Counted from the first letter of the stretch, positions 46,925-62,365 are shown. The stretch is 64,000 nt of DNA from Vicinamibacterales bacterium (GCA_038918905.1 JBCKZS010000010.1:638-64637); one strand, 5' to 3'. Notes: generated from the letters alone by a model not told the origin. A program made the numbers and translations.

Positions 46925-48598
46925 TCAACTCTGCCTGAAGAGCCGCATCCCTGCCTCTTTCTCGAATGCCGTACAAATCAGCTTGAGCCGTTCCTGCCGG
47001 AACTTCTTGAATGCACCAACGACTCCGCGTTCCCAGACGCCAGCGTCCTGCCCAGCTGGAAGCAGATGGCTCCTCATGACCTGGAGAAAGCGCTGGCGGC
47101 CCTCGTCACGATATTCGGCTAGATACTTGCGCGGCAGGCGCTTGCCGATCTTGAGATTGTCTCGCGCCACCAAGAAGCAGATATTGCACAGGCTGTTGTA
47201 GACCTTCGCCGACACATGGTGCCGGAGCTGTCCTTGAGGAAAGATGTGATGCCGATGTTTTCGATTTGAGTGGCTGATGATGGCCTTGTCCAATGGGATT
47301 GGCTCGCCATCCTCGAGATACCGAGGAGCGCGAGCCGCCAGCAGACAGAAGAATGCCCGCGCCCTGGCGCTGCGTGAAGCATAGTCGGCCGACTGAATAT
47401 CCAGTACCGGGTCGAGACGGTCACGAAAGACGAAGCGAACCCTTGAACCCCGTGCAAGGGACGCGAAGAACTTCGCGTCGCCCACAATGTTGCGGTGATA
47501 ACCCCGGCCTGTATACCGCTGCCCCACACCCGTTGCCCAAAACCACTTGCGGATTTCCGCGGCCTGGTACCGATCGGGCGGACCATGGTGGTGAAAGAAA
47601 AATACCGCAAGGGTCGCCAGCATGTTTGCGGACGGCAGGTACGACTCGTCGTGGACGGGGAAGCGATTGTGCAAGTGGTCCACGGCAGCGCAGAACGCGT
47701 TCTGGTACTTGTGCCAGAGGTTCTGGAATCTCTTCTTTTCCGACTCGTCTTTCTGAATGAGTTTTGACCAGCGCCGAGCCATCGCCTCCAGCTTCGGTGG
47801 ATCTCCATCAAGGGCCTGGCTCTCAGCGACCAGGTTGAAGCCCATTAGGATCGGATCGATCGCACTCAAGGCAAGAACAGTATCCCGGATCTTCTGACGA
47901 AGTTCTTGCGCCATCGACCGCACGTCAAGTTCTCCCATTAATGCGATGGCACGGTCCGCCGACGTAATTCGCATGCCTTGCGAATTGACCCGAATGAACA
48001 CCTCGCCGATCTCATCCAACGTCGCCGACCGTACGGTCACAACCGGAATGGGATACGTCAAGAAGCGCTGACGGCACTTGCCCACTCTCATCAAGAACCA
48101 GTCCGGCTTACTGGACATTCTCCTCTTCCAGTCAGGCGCCAAGATATCTGGAAGCGGAACGAACTCACGATCAACGGGCTTGCGGTAAACGATGCGATCG
48201 TGGTCGTCACCCTCCGGATCGGGAGTGACAACAAAACACAGCCGCCTGAAGTCAATCTCCCGTCCTGCGTCGTTCTTCCGAACCTGACCTTCAAACGCCT
48301 GGTAGATCACCGATAGTCGTTGCTGGCCATCGATGACAAACCACACCACGCGATTCCCGCTATCAAACGATGGGAGCACGTCTGCGGACTGTCGAATCAG
48401 GTTGGCTGACCGGCGATCCATCTCCCAGAGGAACAGCGACCCAATCGGCATGGCTCGGTAGATACTGTCCAGAAGCTTCGCCGCGCGACGGGCATCCCAG
48501 ACGAAGTTGCGCTGTAATTTTGGCACCGCGAATTTTCGTGCCTGCAAATCCGAGCGCAGCTTCCTGATGGACACTGTAGCGAGCTTGGGAGGCTTCAT
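46925..48598 (-). CDS. GmrSD-like type IV (modification-dependent) restriction enzyme, DUF262 + DUF1524
   Basis: FAVPKLQRNFVW..., VIDGQQRLSVIYQ (DGQQR). C-terminal HNH-like RKHRHHIFPQGQL. Start at MKPPKLATV. Confidence 0.8.
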   Translation of the reverse strand: MKPPKLATVSIRKLRSDLQARKFAVPKLQRNFVWDARRAAKLLDSIYRAMPIGSLFLWEMDRRSANLIRQSADVLPSFDSGNRVVWFVIDGQQRLSVIYQAFEGQVRKNDAGREIDFRRLCFVVTPDPEGDDHDRIVYRKPVDREFVPLPDILAPDWKRRMSSKPDWFLMRVGKCRQRFLTYPIPVVTVRSATLDEIGEVFIRVNSQGMRITSADRAIALMGELDVRSMAQELRQKIRDTVLALSAIDPILMGFNLVAESQALDGDPPKLEAMARRWSKLIQKDESEKKRFQNLWHKYQNAFCAAVDHLHNRFPVHDESYLPSANMLATLAVFFFHHHGPPDRYQAAEIRKWFWATGVGQRYTGRGYHRNIVGDAKFFASLARGSRVRFVFRDRLDPVLDIQSADYASRSARARAFFCLLAARAPRYLEDGEPIPLDKAIISHSNRKHRHHIFPQGQLRHHVSAKVYNSLCNICFLVARDNLKIGKRLPRKYLAEYRDEGRQRFLQVMRSHLLPAGQDAGVWERGVVGAFKKFRQERLKLICTAFEKEAGMRLFRQS

Positions 48599-48861
48599 TT
48601 TTTTTGTAACTCCCCATCTTGACTCAGGTCGCGAACGCCAGATTCTGGCATGACCACGGCCGAAGCGCCAGACTTTGGGCTGATCGAGACGGTCGTCACA
48701 TTCCCGATCACGCGTCGGCCGAGGCGGGTCCAGAGCGGTTGAATCCAGGGCGGGTCGCGAGAGTCCTTGATCTGGGCTTGAGGATCGAGGTCGTTTAGAA
48801 AAGGAGACGCGGCGCCATCGCCTGTCTTCCACGTCGTGCCCTGCCTCACGCCGTCGCCCAT
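48595..48861 (-). CDS. hypothetical 88-aa ORF bridging hsdR and the GmrSD-like gene
   Basis: Overlaps the hsdR stop by 16 nt, and its TGA overlaps the GmrSD ATG (ATGA). No motif recognised. Confidence 0.35.
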
Positions 48862-51800
48862 TCTCCGGACAGCAGCGCCGCCTGTTCCAACACTGTCTGC
48901 GTCGCACGCTCCTGCTTGTCTGGCGGATATCCGTGTTTGCGCAGGATGCGCTTGACCAGCACCCGTAACTGCGCGCGCACGTTCTCACGCATGGTCCAAT
49001 CGATCGTTACGTTGTTGCGGACGGTCTGGACGAGCTCCCTCGCAATCGCGCGGAGCGTCTCGTCGCCCAGCACCCTCACCGCGCTGTCGTTCGTCTCCAG
49101 CGCGTCATAGAAGGCAAGCTCATCCTCCGACAACCCCAGCACCCGGCCGCGCGCGTTCGCCTCGCGCATGTCCTTCGCGAGCTGGATCAACTCCTCGATG
49201 ACCTGCGCCGCCTCGATGGCCCGATTCTGGTAGCGGCGGATCGTCTGCTCCAACATTTCTGCAAAGGACCGCGCCTGCACGACGTTCTTCCTTCGACGGG
49301 TGCTGAGCTCCCCTTTGAGCAGCTTCTGCAACAGCTCCACGGCGAGGTTGCGCTGCGGCATGCCGCGCACCTCGGCCAGGAATTCGTCCGAGAGAATCGA
49401 AATATCGGGCTTCGCCAGTCCCGCCGCCGCGAAGATGTCCACCACGCCTTCCGGCGCCACCGCGCGGGAGATGATCTGGCGAACCGCGTGGTCCAGCTCT
49501 TCCTCCGGCCGCGCGTCGCCGGGCGCGCGCTTGGCGAGCACGGCCTGCACCGCCTGAAAAAACGCCACGTCGTCGCGAATGCGCAGCGCCTCGGCGTGCG
49601 GCACCGCCAGCGCGAATGCCTGCGACAGCTCCCGCACGACCCGCAGGCACCGATCCTTGCCGTCCTCTTGCTGCAGGATGTGCTCCTGCGCGGCGGGCAA
49701 CAGGCCCAGCCGCTCCCGCGGCGTACCGCTGGTCCACCTGGTCCAGTCGATGCCGTGAAAGAGGCCGCAGCAGATTTCGTACTTCTCCAGCATCACGGCC
49801 ACGGCCTCGTCCTGATCGAACGCCGTGCGGCCCCGGCCGCCGCTCTCGGTGTAGGTCGCGAGCGCCTGCTTCAGCTCCTGGGCAAGCCCGAGATAGTCCA
49901 CCACCAACCCGCCGGGCTTGTCCTTGAACACGCGGTTCACCCGCGCTATGGCCTGCATCAGCCCATGACCGCGCATCGGCTTGTCCGCATACATCGTGTG
50001 GAGGCTTGGAGCGTCGAAGCCGGTGAGCCACATGTCGCGCACCAGCACGATCGTGAGCGGGTCCCTGGCATCGCGGAAACGGTTGGCCAGCGCCTCTCGC
50101 CGCGGCTTGTTGCGGATATGTTGCTGCCAGTCCGGCGGATCGGACGCCGACCCGGTCATCACAACCTTGATCGCGCCCTGCTCATCATCGTCGTGCGCCC
50201 AGGCCGGGCGCAACTTCACCAACTCGCCGTACAACTCCACGCAGATGCGCCGGCTCATGCACACCACCATGGCCTTGCCGTCCATCGCCGCAAGCCGGTT
50301 TTCGAAGTGCTCAACGATGTCACGGGCGATGATCTTCAAGCGCTTCTCAGCGCCGACGATAGCCTCGAGCTGCGCCCACCTGCTCTTGAGCTTCTCTTTG
50401 CGATCGACCTCCTCGCCTTCGGTCGCCTCCTCAAAGTCCGGGTCGATCTTCGGCCGCTCCGCTTCGTCAAGCGCAAGCTTGGCGAGGCGGCTCTCGTAGT
50501 AGATCGGCACCGTGGCGCCGTCCTGCACGGCGCGCTGGATGTCGTAGACACTGATGTAGTCGCCGAACACCGCGCGTGTATTGGCGTCCGCAAGCTCGAT
50601 CGGGGTTCCGGTGAAGCCAATGAACGAGGCGTGCGGCAGTGCATCGCGCATGTGCCGCGCGAAGCCATCGATGAAGTCGTACTGGCTGCGGTGCGCTTCG
50701 TCGGCAATCACCACGATGTTGCGGCGAGCGGAGAGCGTCGGATGCCGGTCGCCCCGCTCTTCCGGGAAGAACTTGTGGATGGTGGTGAACACCACGCCGC
50801 CTGCGGCGACCGAGAGCAATTCCCGCAGGTGCGCCCGGCTCTCTGCCTGCACCGGCGGCTGGCGCAACAGATCCTTGCAGCGGGAGAACGTCGCAAAGAG
50901 CTGATCGTCGAGGTCGTTTCGGTCGGTGAGCAGGACGAGGGTCGGATTCTCCATCGCCGGTTCACGGATGATGCGGCCCGCATAAAAGGCCATCGTCAGG
51001 CTCTTGCCCGACCCCTGCGTGTGCCAGACCACGCCGACGCGCCGGTCGCCCGACTGCCCGCCCGGCTTCTGGCCCGACTCGTATCGCCCGAGCGCGTCCG
51101 CGACGCGATCGATTGTCGTGTCGACCTGGTGCAGTTCAGCCGCCCGCAGCGTCTCGGTCACGGCCACCTGCACGGCGTGGAACTGGTGGTACCCGGCCAT
51201 CTTCTTCGTGATGCGCCCGCCACCATCATCTTCGAACACGAGGAAATCGCGCACCATGTCGAGGAAGCGGCGCGGTTCGAAGAGGCCCGTCGTGACCACT
51301 TGCAGTTCCGGCAGGTAGGTGTCCGCCAGGCGCTCGCCTGCGATCGTGCGCCAGGGCTTGAACCACTCGCGACCAGCCGTGAGTGTGCCGACGCGGGCTT
51401 CCACACCGTCAGAGATGACGAGCAGCTCGTTCGTGGCGAAGAGCGACGGAATCTCGGCCTTGTAGGTCTGGAGCTGCTGGAAGGCCGACCAGATCGTGGC
51501 GTTCTCGGCCGCTGCGTTCTTCAGCTCCAGCACCGCCAGCGGCAGGCCGTTCACGAAGAGCACCACGTCCGGCCGGCGGGTGTGTTTGTTCTCCACCACC
51601 GTGAACTGATTGACCGCGAGGCAGTCGTTGTTCGCGGAGTCTTCGAAGTCGATCACCCGGACTGGCGTCCCCTTGATTTCGTCGTTCGCGGCGCGATACT
51701 CGACCTCCACTCCGTCCACGAGCAGGCGGTGAACGCCCCGGTTGCGCCCGACGAGGTCTGCCCCTTCGGGCCGCGTGAGCTTGCGGAACGCGTCCTCCAG

Positions 51801-52001
51801 CGCTTCGGCGGGAAGGTCCCGGTTCAGCCGCGCCAGCGCATCCCGCAGCCGCCGCTCCAGCACGACCTGGCCGTAATCGGTGCGCTCCGCGGCAAACTCG
51901 CCGGGCGCGATGTCCGCGCCGTTGACCACACTCCAGCCGATGGCTTCAAGCCAGTCGAGGGCGGCCTGTTCGACGACGGATTCGGTGAAGCTCGCGCTCA
52001 T
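48846..52001 (-). CDS. hsdR: type I restriction enzyme R subunit
   Basis: [18 protein letters not shown]... N-terminus. Helicase motifs [29 protein letters not shown]. 1051 aa. Confidence 0.95.
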
Positions 52002-53317
52002 GTCGTTTCCCACAGCGCGCGCAGCGGCACGGCGTGCAGGCCGTCGCCGAAGCTGATGGTCGCGCTTCCATCGTAAAGCACGACGCCTGCGGCGAAGCGC
52101 TTACCCGCGGCGTCCCGCAGCTTGCGAAGTCCCCGGAGGTCACCTTCCGTCACGGTCGCGGCTGCCTTCACCTCGACGCCGGCGACGGCCGCATGGCCCT
52201 GCTCCAGCACGATGTCCACCTCGAAATCGTCGCGATCCCTGAAGTGGAAGAACTCGACCGGCATCGGTCGCCAGCTTGCCTGGCGGCGGAGCTCCTGGAG
52301 CACGAACGATTCCAGCATCGGCCCGAGCGCCGCGCGGTCCTCGTCGAGCGCCGCCGCGCCGATCCCGAGCAGGGAGCAGGCCACGCCCGTGTCGCCCATG
52401 TGGAGCTTGGGGCGCTTGACCATCCGGCTCAGGCGGTTCGTGTGCCACGCGGGCAATCGCTCGAGCAGGAACACCCGCTCCAGCAGCGTGACGTAGTCGT
52501 GGATCGTCTGGCGCGTCAGCTCGAAGGGGGCCGCAAGATCCGCCACGTTGAGGAGTGTCGCGGTATGGCTCGCCGCCAGGGCGAGCAGCTTGGGCAGCGC
52601 GTCGAGCGAGTGTATGCGCGCCAGGTCGCGGACGTCGCGCTGGATCTGCGTTTCGATGTAATCGCGGTACCACGCGCGCCGGCGCGCCGCGCTCCGGCGC
52701 GCGAGCGCCGCGGGGTATCCGCCTGCGACGATGCGCTCGGCGAGGCCGACGCCGAGGCGTTCGCTGATGCCGGTTCTGAAGCGGGCGGCAAACAAGGCGT
52801 CGATGAATCGCGGCCGGGTGCTCTCGATCTCGCATTGCGCCAGCGGATGGAGCCGCAGCAGGCCCATCCGCCCCGCCAGGGACTCGGCGAGGCGGGGAAC
52901 GAGGAGCACGTTGGCGGATCCCGTCAGGATGAACCTGCCCGCGGTTCTGCGCTGGTCGATAGCGGCCTTGAGCGAGGTAAAGATCTCCGGGATCCGCTGG
53001 ACGTCGTCCAGGATGGTCCTCGCCGGGAGGCGGGACACGAAGCCGACCGGGTCGTTTCGCGCGGCAGCGAGCACGGCCTCGTCGTCGAACGAGACGTACC
53101 GGTACCCGCGGGGCTCGCCGACGGCGCGAGCGAGCGTGGTTTTGCCGCTCTGCCGCGGGCCGTGGATCAGGACGGCGGGCGTGTCGCCGAGCGCCTCGCG
53201 CAGGCGCGGCGCGAGGTGGCGGGGATAGGGTTTGGCGATCCGGGACACGACCGATAGTAGCTGCGCCGGACGGCTGAATGCAAGAATAGCCGTCGGCTGA
53301 ACGCTATTTTCGGCCAC
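51998..53317 (-). CDS. AAA-family ATPase with DUF4143-type C-terminal domain
   Basis: [17 protein letters not shown] (Walker A). Its stop overlaps the hsdR ATG (ATGA). The real start is more likely the GTG at 53248 ([12 protein letters not shown]...), because 53271..53357 is a repeat array. Confidence 0.8.
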
Positions 53318-53357
53318 GGCTGATCGCTATTTTACGCATCGGCCGAACGTTACTGTC
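53271..53357. repeat. 23-bp tandem repeat, 3 full + 1 partial unit
   Basis: cggctgaatgcaagaatagccgt / cggctgaacgctattttcggcca / cggctgatcgctattttacgcat / cggccgaacgttac... It abuts the hsdR stub breakpoint. Confidence 0.8.
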
Positions 53358-53450
53358 CTCGCCGATATCCGCGCCGTTGACCACCCAGCCGATGCCATCC
53401 AGCCAGGCGAGGGCGGCCTGTTCAACGACGGATTCAGTGAAGGGAGTCAT
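53358..53450 (-). pseudogene. hsdR 5' stub (31 codons)
   Basis: [31 protein letters not shown] compared with intact hsd[36 protein letters not shown]. Homology ends after GGCGAG. Confidence 0.75.
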
Positions 53451-53585
53451 GACGATGCCCGGCCGATTATCCAGGAATGAGCAGGAATAAGCAGGAAAGA
53501 GCAGGCGAAAGGGCAGGAATAGGAAGGAATAAAAGCCAGAATAGGAGTTCAATTGGAGTCGAATTGGAGTTCCCCCGGCTGGCGA
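53451..53585 (-). promoter_or_regulatory. A/T- and pyrimidine-rich leader with phased short repeats (function unknown)
   Basis: Minus strand: AACTCCAATTCGACTCCAATTGAACTCC, then TTTCCTGCTT|ATTCCTGCTC|ATTCCTGGAT (10-nt phase). It is one of the very few non-coding gaps over 100 bp between hsdM and the GmrSD-like gene. Confidence 0.4.
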
Positions 53586-54350
53586 TCACGCCACCAGCTC
53601 CTCACGCACGCTCTCGCGCTGGCTCCACGGAACCGGGCGCACTTCGTAACTCCGCAGCGCGTCGATTACCGCTTGCGAGGCCGTCTGCTCCGAGTCATTC
53701 AGTAGCGCATAGGCGCGCGAATCCGGTGAGCGCACTTCCTTCGTGTCGATCCACGAGAGAACCACCGCCTGCGCGGTGTCGCGATTCGGCCGGTTGATGG
53801 TCTGGATGATGCGCTCCGGCTGCTGCCGCGATTTGGGGATCACGAAGTCAAACAGGTGGTCATACCCGGTCTTGCCCGTGAACTTGACCTTCGGTGTGTA
53901 TCGCACGTCGTGCACATCGAGCCAGGCAACGACATCCTCGTAAAAGAGGCTCGCCACTATCGGCACCGCCAGATAGAACATGTCGTTCACCGCCAGCATG
54001 GCTTGCACGAGGTTGTGCTTGCGCAGCGCGAAGTTGTCGGGCGACGCGTGGACCTGAAGCGCTTTACCGTCCATCTGAACGCCAAAGCCATTCAGCGTCA
54101 TCTTCAGCAGGTCCTGGCGCTTGTGGCTCTCCAACTTGCAGCCGCTCTGTTCCAGATCGCCGATCGTGTGCCCGTCGTCGGTCAGGATGAAGCCGCCGTT
54201 GGCCTTCTTCGCATAAATCTGCAAGTAGTCGTTGTGCCGATCGAGATAGGGCGTGGTGATCTCGATCCATTGATCGATCTGGCGAAGGACGGACTTGTCC
54301 TTGAGCCAGGCATGGTAGGCGTCCATTAAACGCTGGATGTCGTGAATCAT
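53586..54350 (-). CDS. DUF1828/DUF1829-like protein
   Basis: [19 protein letters not shown]...[18 protein letters not shown]...[16 protein letters not shown]... fits my recollection of DUF1828+DUF1829. ATGA overlap with the upstream ORF. Confidence 0.65.
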
Positions 54351-54796
54351 GTGAACAGCCCCCGGTCGATGTGCGGCGGTTGCGTGATATTGCAGAACCG
54401 CAGGAAGTCTTCCAGCGTCGCCCACACATCGCCGGTGTCCTGGAAACGGTCAGCCGGAACCGGCAGCGCCCACTTGTCGCCGTAGCCCTCGCGGTACAGG
54501 TGCAGATGGGGCGCCGGAATTTCTTCGTCGTCCGGGTTACGATGGGGAGCGCCGCCCAGATCGAGCCGGACAAGGACGACGACCTGCTGAGCCCGGTTCT
54601 GCATGGTGACCTTGACCAAATCGATGCGGCCGCGGCTCAGGTCGAGCAGGAATTGCTCCCGCTTGTCGGCGGACTGAAGCGGCACCACGATCGATTGCCC
54701 GCCCATCGGGAAGTCGATCCGATCGTCCGTGGTTCGGTGCTTCTCCATGGCGATCAAGGCATCCGCCTCGGCCTGCGTGAGATTGATGTCGGCCAT
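54347..54796 (-). CDS. hypothetical 149-aa protein, partner of the DUF1828/1829 gene
   Basis: [20 protein letters not shown]...[28 protein letters not shown]... A widespread uncharacterised family by recollection; not verified. Confidence 0.55.
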
Positions 54797-54841
54797 CAGA
54801 CCGCCCCCACGAACAAACGCCCGGCGCCATGTATCCACCGT

Positions 54842-54945
54842 CTGCCGGGTGCAAGCACCGCACCATGGCGGACGGACCAGCCGACGCTCTTCAGCCAGGC
54901 GAGGCCGGCCTGTTCGACCGTGGATTCGGTGAAGGTGGAGTTCAT
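54842..54945 (-). pseudogene. hsdR 5' stub (34 codons)
   Basis: [34 protein letters not shown]. Its ATG overlaps the HerA stop (ATGA). Homology ends after CCCGGCAG. Confidence 0.75.
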
Positions 54946-56699
54946 CGCTTCTGGTAGCGCCAGCGATTCGCGACGGCTTTCAGTTGGTCCTCGGACATCG
55001 CATCGCTCTGCCATCCCCTGTCGAAGTCGATGTCGTTCGACTTCGGTAGCTGGTCGTCCGCGAGATCTCGGATCATGATGCGTGAGGGAAGCATGGCTGC
55101 CTGACCGACGAAGATGGCCTCCTGTCGCCGCAGTCCAGACAGCATCTTCGTCAGTCCCGCCATCGAATCTGGAAGCACACCACGCACATGCTCCCTGTCC
55201 GCCTCATTCGTTATGCGGAGCACAATCCAAGAGTTGCACTGCGAGAGCACGGTCGACTCCACTTCGCTTGGCCGCTGCGATACAAGGAACAACCCGATGC
55301 CGTACTTACGGCCTTCCTTCGCGATCCGTCTGATGGCGCTTTGGGCTGCCCCATACTGCGCCTCACCGCTGTTGGGGACGTAGCGATGGGCCTCCTCGCA
55401 TACGAGCACAACCGGACTGACCTCTCGCTCAGCGACGGTCTGCCAGACCTTCAAAGAGAACAACGTTCGCGCGATCGCTGCGCTTGCCGTACCGGCCACC
55501 TCGTTAGGCACCCCGGACAGGTCGACGATTCTCACCGCATCACCGGCGCCTAGTATCTGAGCCAGCACGGACGGCATCGGGTCACCTGCTCCATCCCAGG
55601 CTTTCATCATGAACGAGAGTCGCTCGTCCTTTATCAACGAGTCGAGCTTTCTCAGAACCTTGTTGTAGTCCTCATGATCCTTCTTGTTCTTGTTGGTTGG
55701 TCTCTGTGAGTTGATTGCCCCTACGAGACCAGTCTCGTACTTCGCTCCGTTCAGCTCGCCGAACTCGTCCAATCCCGCCGGGTCACCAAGAAGGTAGGGG
55801 ATAGGCGCATCGACTGTGAGCTTGCTTGAGTCAAGCTGGAGAACGCTCGTCGCAGCGCTCGAACGTGCCGCGAGCAGTGCATTCTTGACAATGTTCGCCT
55901 GCGACGTAGCGGCGTACTCGGTCTTTCCGATTAAGAGACCAATGGTCTCATCAAGGTCCAAGAGCCAATAGGGCAGCGACAGTGTCCCCTCATCGGTGGA
56001 TAACCTCTTGTGCTCCTTGAATGCCTTGCCGTACTCGTTATGCGGATCGAGGATGACGATCTGCGGTTTCCAGTTGTCGTACTTGGCATCCTTGCCTCGT
56101 TGAATCACGCTGTGGATGATCGCTGCGACCGCGGCGGACTTGCCAGTACCGGTCGAGCCGAGTATCGCGGTGTGCTTGCCAAGCAGCTCATTCAAGTCCG
56201 CATAGCAGGGCGCTCCGCCCGCCCCCACATGCTCTCCGAGCTGGATGACTGCGCCTTTGAAGTGCCCGTAGATAAACCGCAGCTCTGACTTCGGCGTGAG
56301 ATAGACCGTTTGCTGGGGCAAGGGGTAGGTCGCTACGCCGCGTTCGAACTGCAGCTCCCCCTCGCCAGCGTCATCACGTGTCCATTCTCCCTCTCCGAAC
56401 AGATCAGCCTCAACGACCCTCTCATCCGCTGCGGCCCGAGGTGCCACCCCGCGCTCGGCCTCGTACTCCGCCTTCATTCGAAGCCGCCCGACAAGCGCGT
56501 AGATCAGGCGGCGGCCAAAGTGAATCCGCACGATCGATCCGAACTGCCCGATGGGATATGTCTCCCCCGCATAGACACGAGACAATTCCGTCAGGCCGGG
56601 GTCCAGCTCAGCAATGATGTGCGAGCCGTCCACCTCGATGATCTTGCCGATGGCCAGGTTCTCGATCGGATCGCCGGGATTGCGCTTTTCGGTATTCAT
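54942..56699 (-). CDS. HerA-like hexameric ATPase/helicase of a SIR2-HerA defence pair
   Basis: Walker A GSTGTGKS, Walker [12 protein letters not shown], 585 aa. ATGA overlap with the SIR2 gene. Confidence 0.85.
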
Positions 56700-57840
56700 C
56701 GCTCACCCCCGAGCAACCGCGTGATGTTTTCGAACTTCCACCACAGGAGATCCGTCGTCGACTTCTCCGAGGAATCACCATGAAAGAAGCCTCGGTTCGC
56801 GAAAATCAACACCTGTTCTCGGATCCTCTCGTCCTCGGTCCACGTCTTCAACTGGCCCGTCGGTTCGCTCTCGCTCGTGAACGCCACGACGGTCAAGTTA
56901 CCCGCGGATTCGCGGAGCCCCCTGTCCACCTCGATATTGATATGTGCGTCGGCGAAGCCGTATCCGCATATGACAAGGACGCGCTGGAAACCGTGGTTTG
57001 GCCGCATGACGCCCCGCGCTCGGTCCGCCAGTTGGGCGAATGGGTCCAACTGCGTTTCGCGATACTTCGTTGAAGCCGGCCAAATGAGAATCCGGCGGTC
57101 GTTCGCGTCTGTCACTTGGAGACTCGATGCAAATCGCCGGGGCAAGGGATCGCTGGGGAGCTCGCACCAGTTGATTGATCCGTGAAGCTTCAGGACGCGG
57201 GCGGCCAAACCGTCACGATCGAAAGTCTTAGGGTTCCACCAGCCCGTCACCCCTCCGTCGATCCCATCCGAGAACGGAACCCGCTCTAGTGCTAGAGCGT
57301 CCTCGATCGCGGTGTCGTAGTTGAGCACGAGGTAGTCCACAACCTGACCGGGTGCCGTTCTGCCCTCGCGCAAGGGGCGATGCACTGCGACGACAAAGGC
57401 TCGATGGATTGCAATCGAGACCTTCTTCTCGATGACGCTGGCAATGGCCCGCTTGATTTGATCGGCGGCACCTCGCAGTTGCGCGACGGTGTAACCCGTC
57501 GCGCCCAATGTGATGTCCTTCTGCGTCGCGCCACGGTCAACTCTGCGCTCCGCGATAGCAAGGAGGTCGATCAGTTCGCTTAGGTAATCCTCAATGTGTG
57601 CATTCGCGGCGCCGGCGAAGAGATTCTTGACAGCGGTCAGGATGGCTTTGCTCGTGCCATCGAGTTCACTGCTACCAAGAACCTCGGCCGTGAGTTCACC
57701 AGTCAGGGGGAGGCCCGCGCACTTGCTGCAACCCGCCCCGATCAAGAACGCCCGCCCACTCTGAACGACAAGTTCTTCGAACTTCGCGACCGCTTCGGAG
57801 AAAGGCTTCTCGCGGAGTACGGATAGATCGTCGGGCGTTG

Positions 57841-57844
<4 letters not shown>
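56696..57844 (-). CDS. SIR2-family (NADase-type) protein of a SIR2-HerA defence pair
   Basis: FLIGAGCSKCAGLP (GAGxS NAD loop), LKLHGSINW (catalytic His). GGAGG RBS. Its ATG overlaps the hsdS stop (ATGA). Confidence 0.85.
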
Positions 57845-59092
<1,248 letters not shown>

Positions 59093-59103
<11 letters not shown>

Positions 59104-59163
59104 ACCCACGCTCCTTCACGTTCGCGGCGACGGCACCGCCCGGCTTCGTAGCCTGCGCCCTGC
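59093..59163 (-). pseudogene. hsdM 3' stub
   Basis: ...AQATKPGGAVAANVKERGYGG* compared with the hsdM end ...[21 protein letters not shown]. About three quarters of 70 nt match by eye. Both ends use GGGTATGGC to start the next gene. Confidence 0.65.
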
Positions 59164-60299
59164 TCACGGCTTCCTCCGGCGAGCGCGTGGCGTCTCTTGC
59201 GATTCTCCGGAAAGCTCTGCCTCGATCTCCTCCACCGTCGGCAGGATCCCCTCCAGTTCCTTCGGCAGCGACTTGACGAGGCTCGTCTCCCACTGTGACA
59301 CGCCGATCGGCTTCTTGAGGTCGCGCAGCGCGTACTCCACCACGACCGCGTTCTTCGAGCGGCAGAGCAGCAGCCCGATGGTGGGCTTGTCGTCCGGATG
59401 GCGCAGCAGGTCGTCGGCCGCCGAGAGATAGAGATTCAGCTTCCCCACGAATGCCGGGGCGAACGCCACGGCCTTCAGCTCGACCACCACGTAGCAGCGC
59501 AGCTTCAAGTGGTAGAAGAGCAGGGTCCACCAGGAAGTCCTGGTCGCCGACCTCCAGCAGCACCTGCCTGCCCACGAAGGCGAAGCCGCTGCCCAGTTCC
59601 AGCAGAAAGCGCTGCACGTGATCGACGAGCGCCTCCTCCACCTCGCGCTCGCGGCGCGGGTCGGCGGTACCGAGGAAGTCGAACAGATAGGGGTCCTTGA
59701 AGACCTGGGCAGCGAGGTCGGACTCGCCGGGCGGCAGCGCCGCCGCGAAGTTGGTCAGCGCCTTGCCCTGGCGGTCGCGGGCGCGGCCCTGGATCTGGAG
59801 CACAAGGATGTTGTGCGACCAGCCCCGCTCGATGGCCTGGCGCGCGTACCAGAGGCGCTCGGCGGGGTCGTCGAGCTTCTCCAGCAGCGCGATGTGGTGG
59901 TACCAGGGCAATCGTGCAAGAGGCTCTTGCACGATTGCCCGCTCCGGCCAGGCCGCGGCGAACGCGCGCATGTACTTGAGGTTGCGCGGCGAGAAACCCT
60001 TCATGTCGGGGAACGCCTCGCGCAGGTCCGCGGCCAGGCGGTCGATCACCTTCGCGCCCCAGCCCGCGCTCTCCTGCCGCGCCAGGATCATCCGTCCGAT
60101 GTCCCAGTAGAGCAGGACCATCGCCGCGTTGGCGGACAGGACGACGCGCAGGCGCTCCTGCTGGATGCGCGACTTGATCGCGGCCAACGCGTCGGCGTAG
60201 TCCTGCGGGAGGGCAGTCCTGGCCGGCGCGACCGGAAAGCGCGCTTCGGGCCGGGCGCGGCCCCGCGCAAGCCGGATGTCGGCTTCCGGGCGGGAGCGC

Positions 60300-60310
<11 letters not shown>
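59164..60310 (-). pseudogene. YhcG/DUF1016-type PD-(D/E)XK nuclease, +1 frameshift
   Basis: N-part ...GSGFAFVGRQVLLEVGDQDFLVD and C-part LLFYHLKLRCYVVVELKAVAF...LSAADDLLRHPDDKPTIGLLLC are in different frames. There is an extra C in GACCCTG (59521..59527). Confidence 0.8.
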
Positions 60311-61919
<1,609 letters not shown>

Positions 61920-62365
61920 GGCGTACCTCCGCTCTGGGGCGCTGCTGGATTCTAGCGTATGCGGCACCCGTGACAGGTCAGGTCCCACGCGGTCAATAAT
62001 CCCGGCACGCTGACCCGCCCTGTCAGAGGGACGCTGATGGCGCAGTCCACGGTGAGCCACAACGCCATCCGCCGCAGGTCGTCGCGCGTGGACTGCGGGA
62101 ATTGCATGGCATGCTCGAGCAGGCCGTGCACCAACGTGCCCCACGCGGCGCCGGCATCGGCGCGGCGCGATGGGGTGGGGGTGGTAAAGACGGCCGTCGG
62201 ATCGCCTTCGGGTCATTGGCGCGGCCACGCCCTGCGTACGTCCCCGGCCGCCCTACGCACCGTCTCAGCGCCGACGAGCGCCATGGCATCCTGCCGATCG
62301 GCCAGCGTATGGCCGATGCCGTGCGTGGGCACAAACACCCACTTCGCGCTCGCTTCGCCCGCGCG

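Follow-up and report, generated by a model that had tools for sequence, protein, structure and literature searches.

Restoration of a gene end is known from genomic islands and integrons, such as those using tRNA-targeting integrases or attI/attC cassettes; these systems need a recombinase and a fixed core site. Defence genes embedded in restriction loci include PrrC in the prr locus of E. coli and the rlo genes in the hsd loci of Campylobacter. Defence genes nested in Type I R-M operons are now used for the discovery of immune systems, and their arrival has so far gone unexplained. Genes embedded in Type I R-M, BREX and DISARM operons have been catalogued under the name 'guilt by embedding', in a text in which hsdR, 'truncated' and 'recombination' never occur (bioRxiv 10.1101/2024.01.29.577857). 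A different precedent is offered by the T6SS effector-immunity arrays of Vibrio cholerae, where incoming modules displace most of the resident gene and orphan fragments accumulate with no integrase, the proposed mechanism being homology-facilitated illegitimate recombination (Kirchberger et al. 2017, PMC5361080). According to the literature cited in that paper, the 'C-terminal displacement' of Rhs and CDI systems yields comparable orphan arrays (PMC5361080). R-M insertion with long target duplication, in turn, produces variable direct repeats of >30 bp with no mobility genes; these repeats often run across the beginning or end of the gene that is hit, which leaves one copy of it intact, and in the published cases they hardly differ from each other and correspond to one copy at the empty site (Furuta, Abe and Kobayashi 2010, PMC2853133). 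Here we describe a Type I R-M operon in which defence genes alternate with orphan 5' fragments of hsdR, which we call stubs; we found no description of such a recurrent footprint in the literature.

Organization of the operon and its stubs

The window, i.e. the entire analysed stretch of 64,000 nucleotides from a Vicinamibacterales bacterium (GCA_038918905.1 JBCKZS010000010.1:638-64637), contains a Type I R-M operon whose hsdM, hsdS and hsdR genes lie on one strand and are all full length by profile coverage (Pfam, PADLOC). Between hsdM and hsdR PADLOC recovers the embedded families PDC-S02, SIR2-HerA, PDC-M24A/B and PDC-S01. The features, read along the minus strand, are as follows (L numbers denote individual comparison loci):

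60300..62228, minus: intact hsdM, Type I methyltransferase (Pfam N6_Mtase 2e-104 and HsdM_N; PADLOC MTase_I 4e-221)
59194..60316, minus: embedded DUF1016/YhcG PD-(D/E)xK nuclease with one frameshift (PADLOC PDC-S02; Pfam DUF1016_N, truncated YhcG_C)
59099..59190, minus: hsdM 3' stub (local alignment to the hsdM 3' end)
57841..59109, minus: hsdS specificity subunit (Pfam Methylase_S; PADLOC Specificity_I 2e-115)
54942..57856, minus: cargo block 1, a SIR2 (56696 to ~57856) and HerA (54942-56699) defence pair (PADLOC SIR2 9e-65, HerA 2.5e-134)
54849..54945, minus: stub 3, hsdR-derived part, codons 1 to ~33 (HMM and alignment)
54796..54848, minus: decayed 3' tail of hsdS, joined to stub 3 (aligned at the DNA level to L164 and L166)
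53586..54796, minus: cargo block 2, DUF6978 (54347-54796) and DUF1828/DUF1829 (53586-54350), ATGA-coupled (PADLOC PDC-M24A, PDC-M24B, 1e-58, 3e-106; Pfam 9e-47, 9e-34, 1e-27)
53451..53585, minus: pyrimidine-rich leader of 135 nt, upstream of stub 2
53358..53450, minus: stub 2, hsdR codons 1-35 (HMM; junction common to L081 and L082)
53249..53357, minus: conserved DUF4143 control region, marking where cargo block 3 starts on the left
51998..53248, minus: cargo block 3, AAA ATPase with DUF4143 (PADLOC PDC-S01, 2e-165; Pfam DUF4143 2e-41, AAA_14)
48846..52001, minus: intact hsdR, 1051 aa (Pfam HSDR_N, SWI2_SNF2, T1RH-like_C; PADLOC REase_I)
46925..48850, minus: GmrSD-like (DUF262) gene adjoining hsdR downstream (Pfam GmrSD_N 5e-22; PADLOC PDC-M55C)

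GC content is unequal among these blocks, and the frame of the DUF1016/YhcG gene is broken near residue 267 (by tblastn the L106 homologue aligns over residues 2-269 and, in the next frame, 267-379). The preliminary description of the locus had noted that the cargo carries no integrase; indeed, Pfam and PADLOC recover no recombinase domain (tyrosine or serine integrase, transposase) in the cargo or elsewhere among the 20 ORFs of the locus and its flanks, although one encoded at another place in the genome might act in trans. Compared with HsdR proteins of 80 species in many phyla, that of the window shows 75-85% identity. Plasmid homologues of HsdR reach at most 58% identity, and hence point to no vehicle for this tight family.

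The three minus-strand hsdR starts (ATG positions 52001, 53450 and 54945) are confirmed, and their translations agree with the peptides quoted in the preliminary description. An HMM built on 80 intact HsdR N-termini matches positions 3-140 in the intact gene, 2-35 in stub 2 (E 3e-6) and 3-35 in stub 3 (E 6e-8). The couplings given there hold as well: the HerA stop overlaps the ATG of stub 3, and the DUF4143 stop that of intact hsdR, each as ATGA, and stub 2 stands behind the 135-nt leader. The copies are diverged as claimed, stub 2 and stub 3 being respectively 88% and 74% identical to the intact hsdR 5' end, and are therefore no assembly collapse of the kind that the description had allowed for. 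Independent assemblies reproduce the order HerA-stub 3-DUF6978 in at least 6 metagenome contigs and the stub 2/DUF4143 junction in a further 2. The locus has the form of a displacement array, with serial hsdR fragments, each accompanied by a retained module, and one intact copy at one end.

Both stubs end at CCCGGC(G)AG, and to this extent the claim that they are cut at the same nucleotide was sound; however, the breakpoint of stub 3 is a microhomology with a fused hsdS tail. In close relatives of stub 3, which form nested length variants, a 5' portion of hsdR continues in frame into the final codons of hsdS, and the hsdS stop overlaps the cargo ATG. Thus L166 reads hsdR 1-57, ..RLRDAL, followed directly by PLKLSSGELRVKDVERFIGKAV and a stop, the tail being the HsdS C-terminus of the family (consensus LAALRDTLLPKLISGELRVKDAERF..; that of the window reads ..LAALRDTLLPKLISGELRMKDGAHIVLEATV). 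L166, L164 and the window have the HerA and DUF6978 flanks in common and differ in the stub: L164 and L166, which score 16.5 and 31.6 bits respectively with an HsdS-tail HMM, retain ..SGELRVKDVERFIGKAV before the stop where DNA alignment places the decayed hsdS tail of stub 3. The CCGGCAGACGG of the window aligns with the hsdS sequence CCGGCGAGCTGCGG, and CCGGCAG (54848-54842) is the microhomology of this hsdS tail with the PGE of hsdR. Likewise, the window's 'CCCGGCAG' falls within the microhomology CCNGGCGAG, common to hsdR codons 33-35 (PGE) and the hsdS tail (SGE). The bases that end stub 3 double as the SGE codons of the fused hsdS tail, so that its breakpoint marks a microhomology of the two genes and not a place of cutting. 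The stop of the hybrid ORF (TGA, 54798-54796) overlaps the DUF6978 ATG.

Stub 2 has suffered one 3-nt and one 6-nt deletion, and its ORF, for which a homologue search returned no candidates, continues to a TAG at 53306-53304. The alignment with the 6-nt gap is backed by L081 and L082, which retain GCCCGGCGAC/GACAGTAGCG and CTGGAGAG/GAACATAGCG. Stub 2 directly adjoins the control region of the DUF4143 gene, consisting of 3-4 direct repeats of TAGCGWTCAGCCG followed by TTGCAT..TACTAT and kept in 18 of 18 aligned loci irrespective of the upstream sequence. Since Rfam gave no match in 51800-55100, leader included, and a sigma-70 consensus scan no promoter in the same interval, we name it a conserved control region only. 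The leader (53451..53585) holds about 5 copies of a 10-11-nt repeat, TTATTCCTGC (minus strand), and is not conserved in other loci; more generally, neither the leaders that separate DUF1828/1829 from hsdR nor the sequences preceding DUF6978 are conserved among distant relatives, and no common junction motif emerged there.

The window also holds a mirror image of the hsdR stubs. The hsdM 3' stub (59099..59190) repeats the final hsdM codons (..AANVKERGYGG and the stop), with the last ~45 nt nearly identical by local alignment; its overlap with the hsdS ATG is exactly that of the genuine hsdM end with the DUF1016 ATG. Such stubs occur in the window and 7 other loci: extra pieces that match the last 21-61 codons of hsdM lie upstream of hsdS in L003, L017 (two), L041, L050, L066 and L119, and in L106 hsdM-3'-like codons can be read by eye past the DUF1016 stop.

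Stubs and junctions in related loci

We compared the window with 80 related hsdR loci of 23 kb, one per species and all from other species, and with a metagenome set. Same-strand hsdR stubs upstream of hsdR were present in 17 of the 80 species-level loci; all of these start at HMM position 2-9 and end at 24-104. Further cases, up to 118, come from the metagenome set; overall the HMM ends are 21-118, with one more case, read by eye, at ~14 (L005). The preliminary description had postulated that cassettes enter hsdR at a fixed point, ~105 nt from its start, and had itself named variable stub ends in other genomes as the observation that would speak against it; the stubs of other genomes in fact end anywhere from codon ~14 to codon ~118. 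A single type of cargo, DUF4143, follows stubs of ~25, 35, 40, 60 and ~106 codons in separate lineages, and no conserved core or shared sequence follows the breakpoints of independent junctions.

In 65 of 70 loci of this Type I family, hsdS and hsdR are separated by cargo of 500 nt or more. Units of cargo plus an hsdR start recur: 1) DUF4143-hsdR in 17 loci; 2) SIR2-HerA-hsdR in L100 and L161; 3) DUF6978/DUF1828-hsdR in L013, L071 and L072. Several loci contain more than one stub, L005 and L096 having three each and L067, L073 and L085 two each, as compared with two plus the intact hsdR in the window; behind the stubs of L066, L073a and L060 there is little or no intact cargo. Deletions are also evident: the L100 junction is that of L114 minus 31 nt, in L111 hsdR codon 23 is joined to codon 1024, and in L115 an hsdM fragment is joined to stub codon 63. 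In the pairs L100/L114, L100/L115 and L096/L106, compared for an end of the shared block at the stub length as cassettes would predict, the hsdR of L114 is itself a stub, L115 has its deletion, and L096 and L106 are uniformly related. Among the loci compared we encountered no before-and-after pair from one lineage and no same-lineage empty site, and within the 23-kb loci no complete operons of this family in tandem.

The HsdS-tail HMM was run on 31 post-stub windows, with thresholds from 3000 control windows. Six of the 31 scored above the 99th percentile of controls, where about 0.3 would be expected, and 4 more above the 95th. The novel joint shows a microhomology of CCNGGCGAG in the window, GCCGAGCGG in the junction L005c (..EAER joined to IIGRVC and a stop) and CTGCGCGATGCGCT in L166; besides the PGE/SGE joint of the window, junctions sit at AER and LRDAL, motifs likewise common to hsdR 5' and hsdS 3' ends. 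Sharing of 8-mers between the hsdR 5' end and the hsdS tail peaks at hsdR codons 12-13, 33-34, 37-39 and 51-54, and the clusters of stub ends (~14, 35, 40-41, 54-60) match these peaks. This agreement is confounded in part, since HMM alignments tend to stop at conserved motifs and the microhomologies are just such motifs; for this reason we place no weight on a binomial test of stub ends against microhomology bins. At about two thirds of the stub junctions, stub 2 included, a recognisable hsdS tail is absent and the microhomology is unreadable; in L060 the junction partner is the interior of a cargo gene. At junctions without an hsdS tail we infer that the partner was either lost by later trimming or was something else. 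Variable ends, and an hsdS 3' partner met at a short common motif where it can be read, are marks of illegitimate, microhomology-guided events between operons, whether recombination or deletion, and not of site-specific cassettes.

Origin of the stubs

We propose, with a probability of roughly 0.6, that the stubs are relics of former hsdR genes, left by out-of-register, microhomology-guided joins of two operons belonging to one widely transferred Type I family. The usual layout of this family is hsdM-hsdS-(defence cargo)-hsdR, with the cargo starting at the hsdS stop and the hsdR ATG at the cargo stop. Where two operons of this kind come together, a point within the first ~20-120 codons of hsdR in one would be linked to a point within the last ~25 codons of hsdS in the other. 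The product would keep the hsdM, hsdS and cargo of the first operon and gain the cargo of the second with its coupled intact hsdR, and the join would leave a short hybrid ORF, an hsdR 5' stub plus hsdS tail, ending on the start codon of the new cargo. Such joins would favour sequences that both gene ends encode, namely PGE/SGE (CCNGGCGAG), AER and LRDAL; small later deletions would then trim the hybrid ORF, and two rounds of joining would yield the two stubs of the window. The enzymology is probably RecA-independent microhomology joining or deletion, acting either on incoming DNA anchored by hsdR homology with an illegitimate left join or through deletion between tandem operons; the right-hand crossover leaves no visible scar. 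The tandem cassettes of the preliminary description are thereby retained as tandem accretion of blocks, each coupled to its own hsdR start, and abandoned as insertions at a fixed site.

Site-specific integration of cassettes of cargo plus a replacement hsdR 5' end, at one site ~105 nt into hsdR and by a recombinase encoded elsewhere, would explain why both window stubs end at CCCGGC(G)AG and why every cargo block has its own coupled hsdR start. It is scarcely credible in view of stub ends that range over codons ~14 to ~118 in about 30 junctions (~25 to ~106 for DUF4143 alone), the lack of anything conserved past the breakpoints, the hsdS-tail fusion at the stub 3 breakpoint with its nested variants in relatives, and the want of a recombinase in or beside the blocks. 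L081 also speaks against it: there the DUF4143 gene and stub are 94% identical to the window and the hsdR past an inserted RhuM gene is 79% identical throughout, so that beyond the stub length, over at least 200 nt, this hsdR represents another allele and not the resident one. Insertion of cargo into hsdR with in situ duplication of its first ~100 nt, the copies diverging later, agrees with the direct repeats of >30 bp (the ~100-nt hsdR 5' repeats) that flank each cargo with no mobility genes and span the start codon of the target gene, in the pattern of Furuta et al. 2010. Over 43 nt, one stub of L081 (2062-2118) and the hsdR start that follows it are 98% identical, and several proximal stubs (window stub 2, L002, L005c, L009) are nearest, of 81 sequences, to their own intact hsdR, which would also fit local duplication or gene conversion. 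Yet 28 of 29 stub-intact pairs are 65-91% identical at the nucleotide level, as against the near-identity of published cases, and the divergence of stubs from their intact counterparts (pS 0.46, pN/pS 0.35; random intact pairs 0.63 and 0.41) looks allelic, as if stubs came from separate functional alleles. Moreover, the right-hand repeat always starts exactly at the ATG coupled to the cargo stop, whatever the many unrelated cargos, and duplication does not predict hsdS tails after several stubs; we consider it quite improbable.

It has also to be asked whether the stubs persist for their usefulness, the hybrid ORF bringing ribosomes to the cargo start codon (translational coupling, polarity protection) and selection setting its length. 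The stub ORF stop does overlap the cargo ATG in window stub 3, L005c, L055, L071/L072, L081b, L164 and L166, but this arrangement goes back to the overlap that hsdS and cargo have natively, and any in-frame join, about 1 in 3 by chance, would preserve it. As many stubs have stop codons or frameshifts (L002, L011, L066, L067), and stub 2 ends inside a control region that the DUF4143 gene appears to bring as its own, such a role is improbable. A further alternative complements the microhomology joins rather than excluding them: a stub and the next hsdR start could serve as two arms, by which RecA copies the module into a related hsdR or a circle loops out and reinserts, and this might be the main route by which modules spread and stack. 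What lies upstream of one and the same DUF4143 junction varies: in the window it is DUF1828/1829 with the leader, in L081 an Mrr-like gene that is truncated, and in L082 a GmrSD-like gene. The HerA-stub unit is followed by DUF6978 in the window but by DUF4143 in L100; and nearly all detected stubs, except that of ~14 codons in L005, retain the most conserved segment, codons 5-23. However, differing upstream partners are equally explicable by other upstream insertions or deletions, no chimeric pattern is resolvable inside a stub of ~100 nt, the 18% difference between the L100 and L114 stubs beside 94% identical cargo fits neutral decay, and several founder events are still needed for the different breakpoints of one cargo. 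As the principal route we regard it as unlikely.

Implications and relationship to known systems

If the stubs did arise by microhomology joins, the footprint reflects an ordinary mechanism and reveals no new kind of mobile element. Its value is rather that of a readable record, in which whole cargo-hsdR blocks would have been joined to existing operons through tiny matches between hsdR starts and hsdS ends, the hybrid ORFs being trimmed afterwards. Orphan hsdR 5' and hsdM 3' ends may hence provide a simple marker for block boundaries and for the order of acquisition in defence islands. More tentatively, the hsd gene ends (hsdR 5' and hsdS 3', perhaps also hsdM 3') could be recombinase-free docking points and the stubs portable homology arms, with which operons of this family stack defence systems. 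With docking ends and stubs of this kind, such operons, spread as they are across many phyla, might need nothing but host recombination to stack or exchange entire defence systems; this possibility, if true, would amount to a general mechanism for the growth of 'embedded' defence islands.

Like gene-end-restoring islands and integrons, the locus has tandem cargo beside a regenerated gene end; unlike them, it has neither a recombinase nor a fixed core site that we could find. With the target duplications of Furuta et al. it has in common long variable flanking repeats and the lack of mobility genes in the window locus, and it departs from them in that the repeats of this family are 65-91% identical and allele-like, several left repeats being fused to an hsdS tail. 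The resemblance to the T6SS, Rhs and CDI orphan arrays, as far as these are set out in PMC5361080, lies in the use of a conserved gene end as a meeting point and in the retention of a fragment and a neighbouring gene at each displacement. In those arrays, as characterized there, the orphans are 3' toxin ends, whereas here they are 5' ends of a restriction subunit gene and the passengers are whole defence systems; further, the illegitimate partner, in distinction from that source's account, is here readable as the hsdS 3' end with defined microhomologies. Finally, the cargo of the window (PDC-S01, PDC-S02, PDC-M24 and SIR2-HerA) belongs to the embedded families of 'guilt by embedding'; that catalogue lists embedded genes, whereas the stubs described here bear on how embedding and stacking happen.

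Organization of the R-M locus and its hsdR stubs

The minus strand from 46.9 to 62.2 kb carries a single chromosomal Type I R-M locus, with infB, truB and pnp upstream, comprising the following features (the PDC names are PADLOC families):

62228-60300, minus: hsdM
60316 to ~59194, minus: DUF1016/YhcG nuclease (PDC-S02), frameshifted
about 59099-59190, minus: short hsdM 3' remnant between the DUF1016 gene and hsdS
59109-57841, minus: hsdS
to 54942, minus: SIR2 and HerA
ATG at 54945, minus: stub 3, an hsdR 5' piece
54796-53586, minus: DUF6978 and DUF1828/1829 (PDC-M24)
53451-53585, minus: repeat-rich leader of 135 nt before stub 2
ATG at 53450, minus: stub 2, an hsdR 5' piece
53249-53364, minus: conserved DUF4143 control region
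53248-51998, minus: DUF4143 AAA ATPase (PDC-S01)
52001-48846, minus: intact hsdR
after intact hsdR, minus: GmrSD-like gene

GC content by block is ~70% for DUF4143, ~59% for PDC-M24, 57-62% for SIR2-HerA and 64-69% for hsdR. The preliminary description is confirmed as to the three hsdR starts, with their peptides and couplings, and an HMM built from intact HsdR N-termini matched both stub 2 and stub 3 through position 35. The earlier gapped alignment of stub 2 is also correct: two metagenome loci, L081 and L082, retain remnants, and stub 2 likewise ends at PGE codons. No recombinase domain was found at the locus, in agreement with the earlier view of cassettes devoid of an integrase. The hsdR copies of the window are 74-88% identical and hence are not collapsed repeats, and the window junctions were also assembled independently in other samples.

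A frameshift near residue 267 breaks the embedded DUF1016/YhcG gene (59194-60316, minus), a sign either of a pseudogene or of an error in sequencing; the long ORF given for this interval continues out of frame into the hsdM remnant. The longest SIR2 ORF (56696-58114, minus) and the GmrSD-like ORF (46925-48988, minus) overlap the hsdS and hsdR 3' ends by 140-270 nt. From alignments of homologues and from profile matches, the true starts seem to lie near 57856 and 48850, respectively, so that tblastn matches to the first ~50-80 residues elsewhere would be frame artefacts. The leader is pyrimidine-rich, with ~5 copies of a repeat of 10-11-nt period (GCAGGAAT, plus strand) and two copies of ACTCCAATT; no conservation was seen in other loci, nor any match in Rfam.

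Stub ends in related loci

We fetched 80 loci encoding close HsdR relatives (75-85% identical, one per species), drawn from Chloroflexota, Acidobacteriota, Proteobacteria, Planctomycetota, Nitrospirota and other phyla; such protein identity over so many phyla would imply very wide and recent horizontal transfer of this operon family. Cargo of at least 500 nt lies between hsdS and hsdR in 65 of the 70 loci showing both genes. Extra hsdR N-terminal matches on the same strand, upstream of the intact gene, were recovered in 17 of the 80 loci, with three stubs in L005 and two each in L067 and L073. Each of these matches begins at the genuine start of hsdR (HMM position 2-9), and the ends fall at positions 24, 27, 27, 37, 37, 40, 40, 41, 41, 46, 46, 47, 54, 55, 56, 59 and 104. 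In a further 80 metagenome loci, retrieved by way of the DUF4143 ATPase, this cargo lies behind stubs of about 25, 35, 40, 60 and ~106 codons in differing lineages, and directly after hsdS, without a stub, in L102 and L121. The pattern recognized in the preliminary description recurs across phyla, but the defined integration site in hsdR proposed there, with its fixed-site cassette mechanism, is not supported: stub ends vary among related loci, the very outcome which that description had named as refuting it.

Judged from ORF sequences rather than by family search, the cargo following stubs is small and of defence or toxin-antitoxin type (DarT/DarG-like, TIR-like, VapBC-like, HicB-like, RhuM-like, Mrr-like and a four-helix-bundle protein). 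A gap of 0-12 nt separates the end of the last cargo gene from the hsdR ATG that follows; stubs L066, L073a and L060 are followed by almost no intact cargo.

Microhomology between hsdR and hsdS at the junctions

Searches with the 49-aa stub 3 ORF recovered four relatives, all on contigs with the order HerA-[short ORF]-DUF6978 and nearly identical flanks. In L166 the short ORF (72 aa) passes from hsdR codons 1-57 (ending ..RLRDAL) into PLKLSSGELRVKDVERFIGKAV*, and this second half is the HsdS C-terminus of the same R-M family (consensus LAALRDTLLPKLISGELRVKDAERF..). The L164 ORF (65 aa) is a shortened form of this fusion and the stub 3 ORF of the window is the shortest; the three length variants are most simply read as nested deletions across one founder junction. 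At the DNA level the window sequence CCGGCAGACGGTGG.. aligns base for base, at equal length, with L166 hsdS CCGGCGAGCTGCGGGTC.., and therefore CCCGGCAG of stub 3, where hsdR homology is apparently lost, marks the place at which hsdR (GCG CCN GGC GAG, APGE) and the hsdS tail (TCC GGC GAG CTG, SGEL) have 8-9 bases in common. The stop of the stub 3 ORF, which overlaps the DUF6978 ATG, is the original hsdS stop.

No hsdS tail survives at the stub 2 junction. L081 and L082 retain remnants of ..CCCGGCGAG directly before GACAGTAGCG, and over the block that begins with the DUF4143 control region and reaches hsdR codon 20 they are 94% and 91% identical to the window, respectively. Stub 2 may have been made with the same PGE/SGE microhomology as stub 3, and hsdR/hsdS microhomology accounts for the coincident breakpoints of the window, directly for stub 3 and by inference for stub 2.

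We scored 150 nt around each of 31 stub ends with an HMM of HsdS tails, using 3000 windows as controls: six (L166, L164, L011, L077, L055 and L071) exceeded the 99th control percentile and four more the 95th. One of the three L005 stubs reads ..EAER|IIGRVC*, joined at GCCGAGCGG, the AER codons in both hsdR and hsdS, and L055 reads ..GLRESLLPLACSDLRR... Counts of 8-mers shared between the full sets of hsdR 5' ends and hsdS tails peak at hsdR codons 12-13, 33-34, 37-39 and 51-54, and stub ends cluster at about 14, 35, 40-41 and 54-60, a coincidence that is weaker evidence than directly readable junctions since HMM alignments tend to end at conserved motifs. In L060 (9687-10000) a stub of ~46 codons is followed, on a by-eye reading of the peptide, by the fused C-terminal half of a DUF4411/PIN-like gene and not by an hsdS tail, so hsdS is not always the partner.

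The ~115-nt region upstream of DUF4143 is strongly conserved in all 18 aligned loci, whatever adjoins it upstream. It contains 3-4 direct repeats of TAGCGWTCAGCCG followed by TTGCAT..TACTAT, and is probably an operator array on which the winged-helix domain of DUF4143 acts in autoregulation.

Origin of the stubs

The best-supported account of the stubs is that two operons of one family became joined out of register. At short shared sequences, a 5' segment of hsdR from one operon would be linked to the hsdS 3' end of the other, giving one operon with both cargos and a single intact hsdR, and the hybrid ORF of hsdR 5' end and hsdS tail would be trimmed afterwards. Incoming DNA might be anchored by hsdR homology while its left end joins illegitimately (homology-facilitated illegitimate recombination), or a microhomology-mediated deletion might occur between two operons already in tandem; both routes lead to this product and look alike in these sequences. 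Stubs already in place may in addition act as homology arms in later exchanges; the same DUF4143 junction is seen with three different blocks upstream of it. In L081, the closest relative to the window, a RhuM-like gene is joined at codon 21 of the hsdR after DUF4143, again with an ATGA overlap, and the hsdR that follows is only 79% identical to that of the window over its whole visible length. In this event another allele supplied all of the downstream block, rather than a replacement 5' end alone. The hsdR copy after the RhuM-like gene (L081 3119-3317) carries a TAG in frame at about codon 44 and lacks 3 nt, and may itself be decaying.

Duplication in situ followed by decay is argued against by stub divergence: stubs compared with their own intact copies give pS 0.46, pN 0.16 and a ratio of 0.35, and random pairs of intact hsdR genes 0.63, 0.26 and 0.41, indicating that the copies diverged as functional alleles, under purifying selection, prior to truncation. 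Several proximal stubs are closest, among 81 sequences, to their own intact copy, which fits related donors and recipients or occasional gene conversion.

Deletions, both small and large, are frequent among these loci: L100 has the L114 junction minus 31 nt, L111 (7248-7394) has an internal hsdR deletion that brings codon 23 next to codon 1024, L115 has an hsdM fragment running into codon 63 of a stub, L081 keeps a mini-stub alone, and several stubs have stop codons or frameshifts. The hsdM remnant of the window (..AANVKERGYGG*) follows embedded cargo, lies just upstream of hsdS and terminates at the position of the hsdM stop; its overlap with the hsdS ATG exactly mirrors that between the true hsdM end and the DUF1016 ATG. 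Additional segments that match the final 21-61 hsdM codons lie upstream of hsdS in L003, L017 (two copies), L041, L050, L066 and L119, and hsdM-3'-like codons, read by eye, follow the DUF1016 stop in L106. These remnants are the mirror image of the hsdR 5' stubs; hence, relics at the ends of conserved genes within the operon are general to this R-M family. In L046 (19389-19652) and L074 (14933-15620) hsdR 3' remnants lie downstream of intact hsdR.

Relation to known systems

Defence genes embedded in Type I R-M operons are already known; the guilt-by-embedding preprint (bioRxiv 10.1101/2024.01.29.577857) mentions neither hsdR fragments nor a mechanism, and a full-text literature search found no report of hsdR 5' stub arrays. 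The stubs are probably products of ordinary recombination, and their footprint helps in tracing the history of defence islands. Insertion with long target duplication, described by Kobayashi (PMC2853133), is also close but entails near-identical repeats, which the hsdR stubs are not. Closest among published patterns are the orphan arrays of T6SS, Rhs and CDI loci, which have been ascribed to modules displacing one another in sequence through homology-facilitated illegitimate recombination (PMC5361080).
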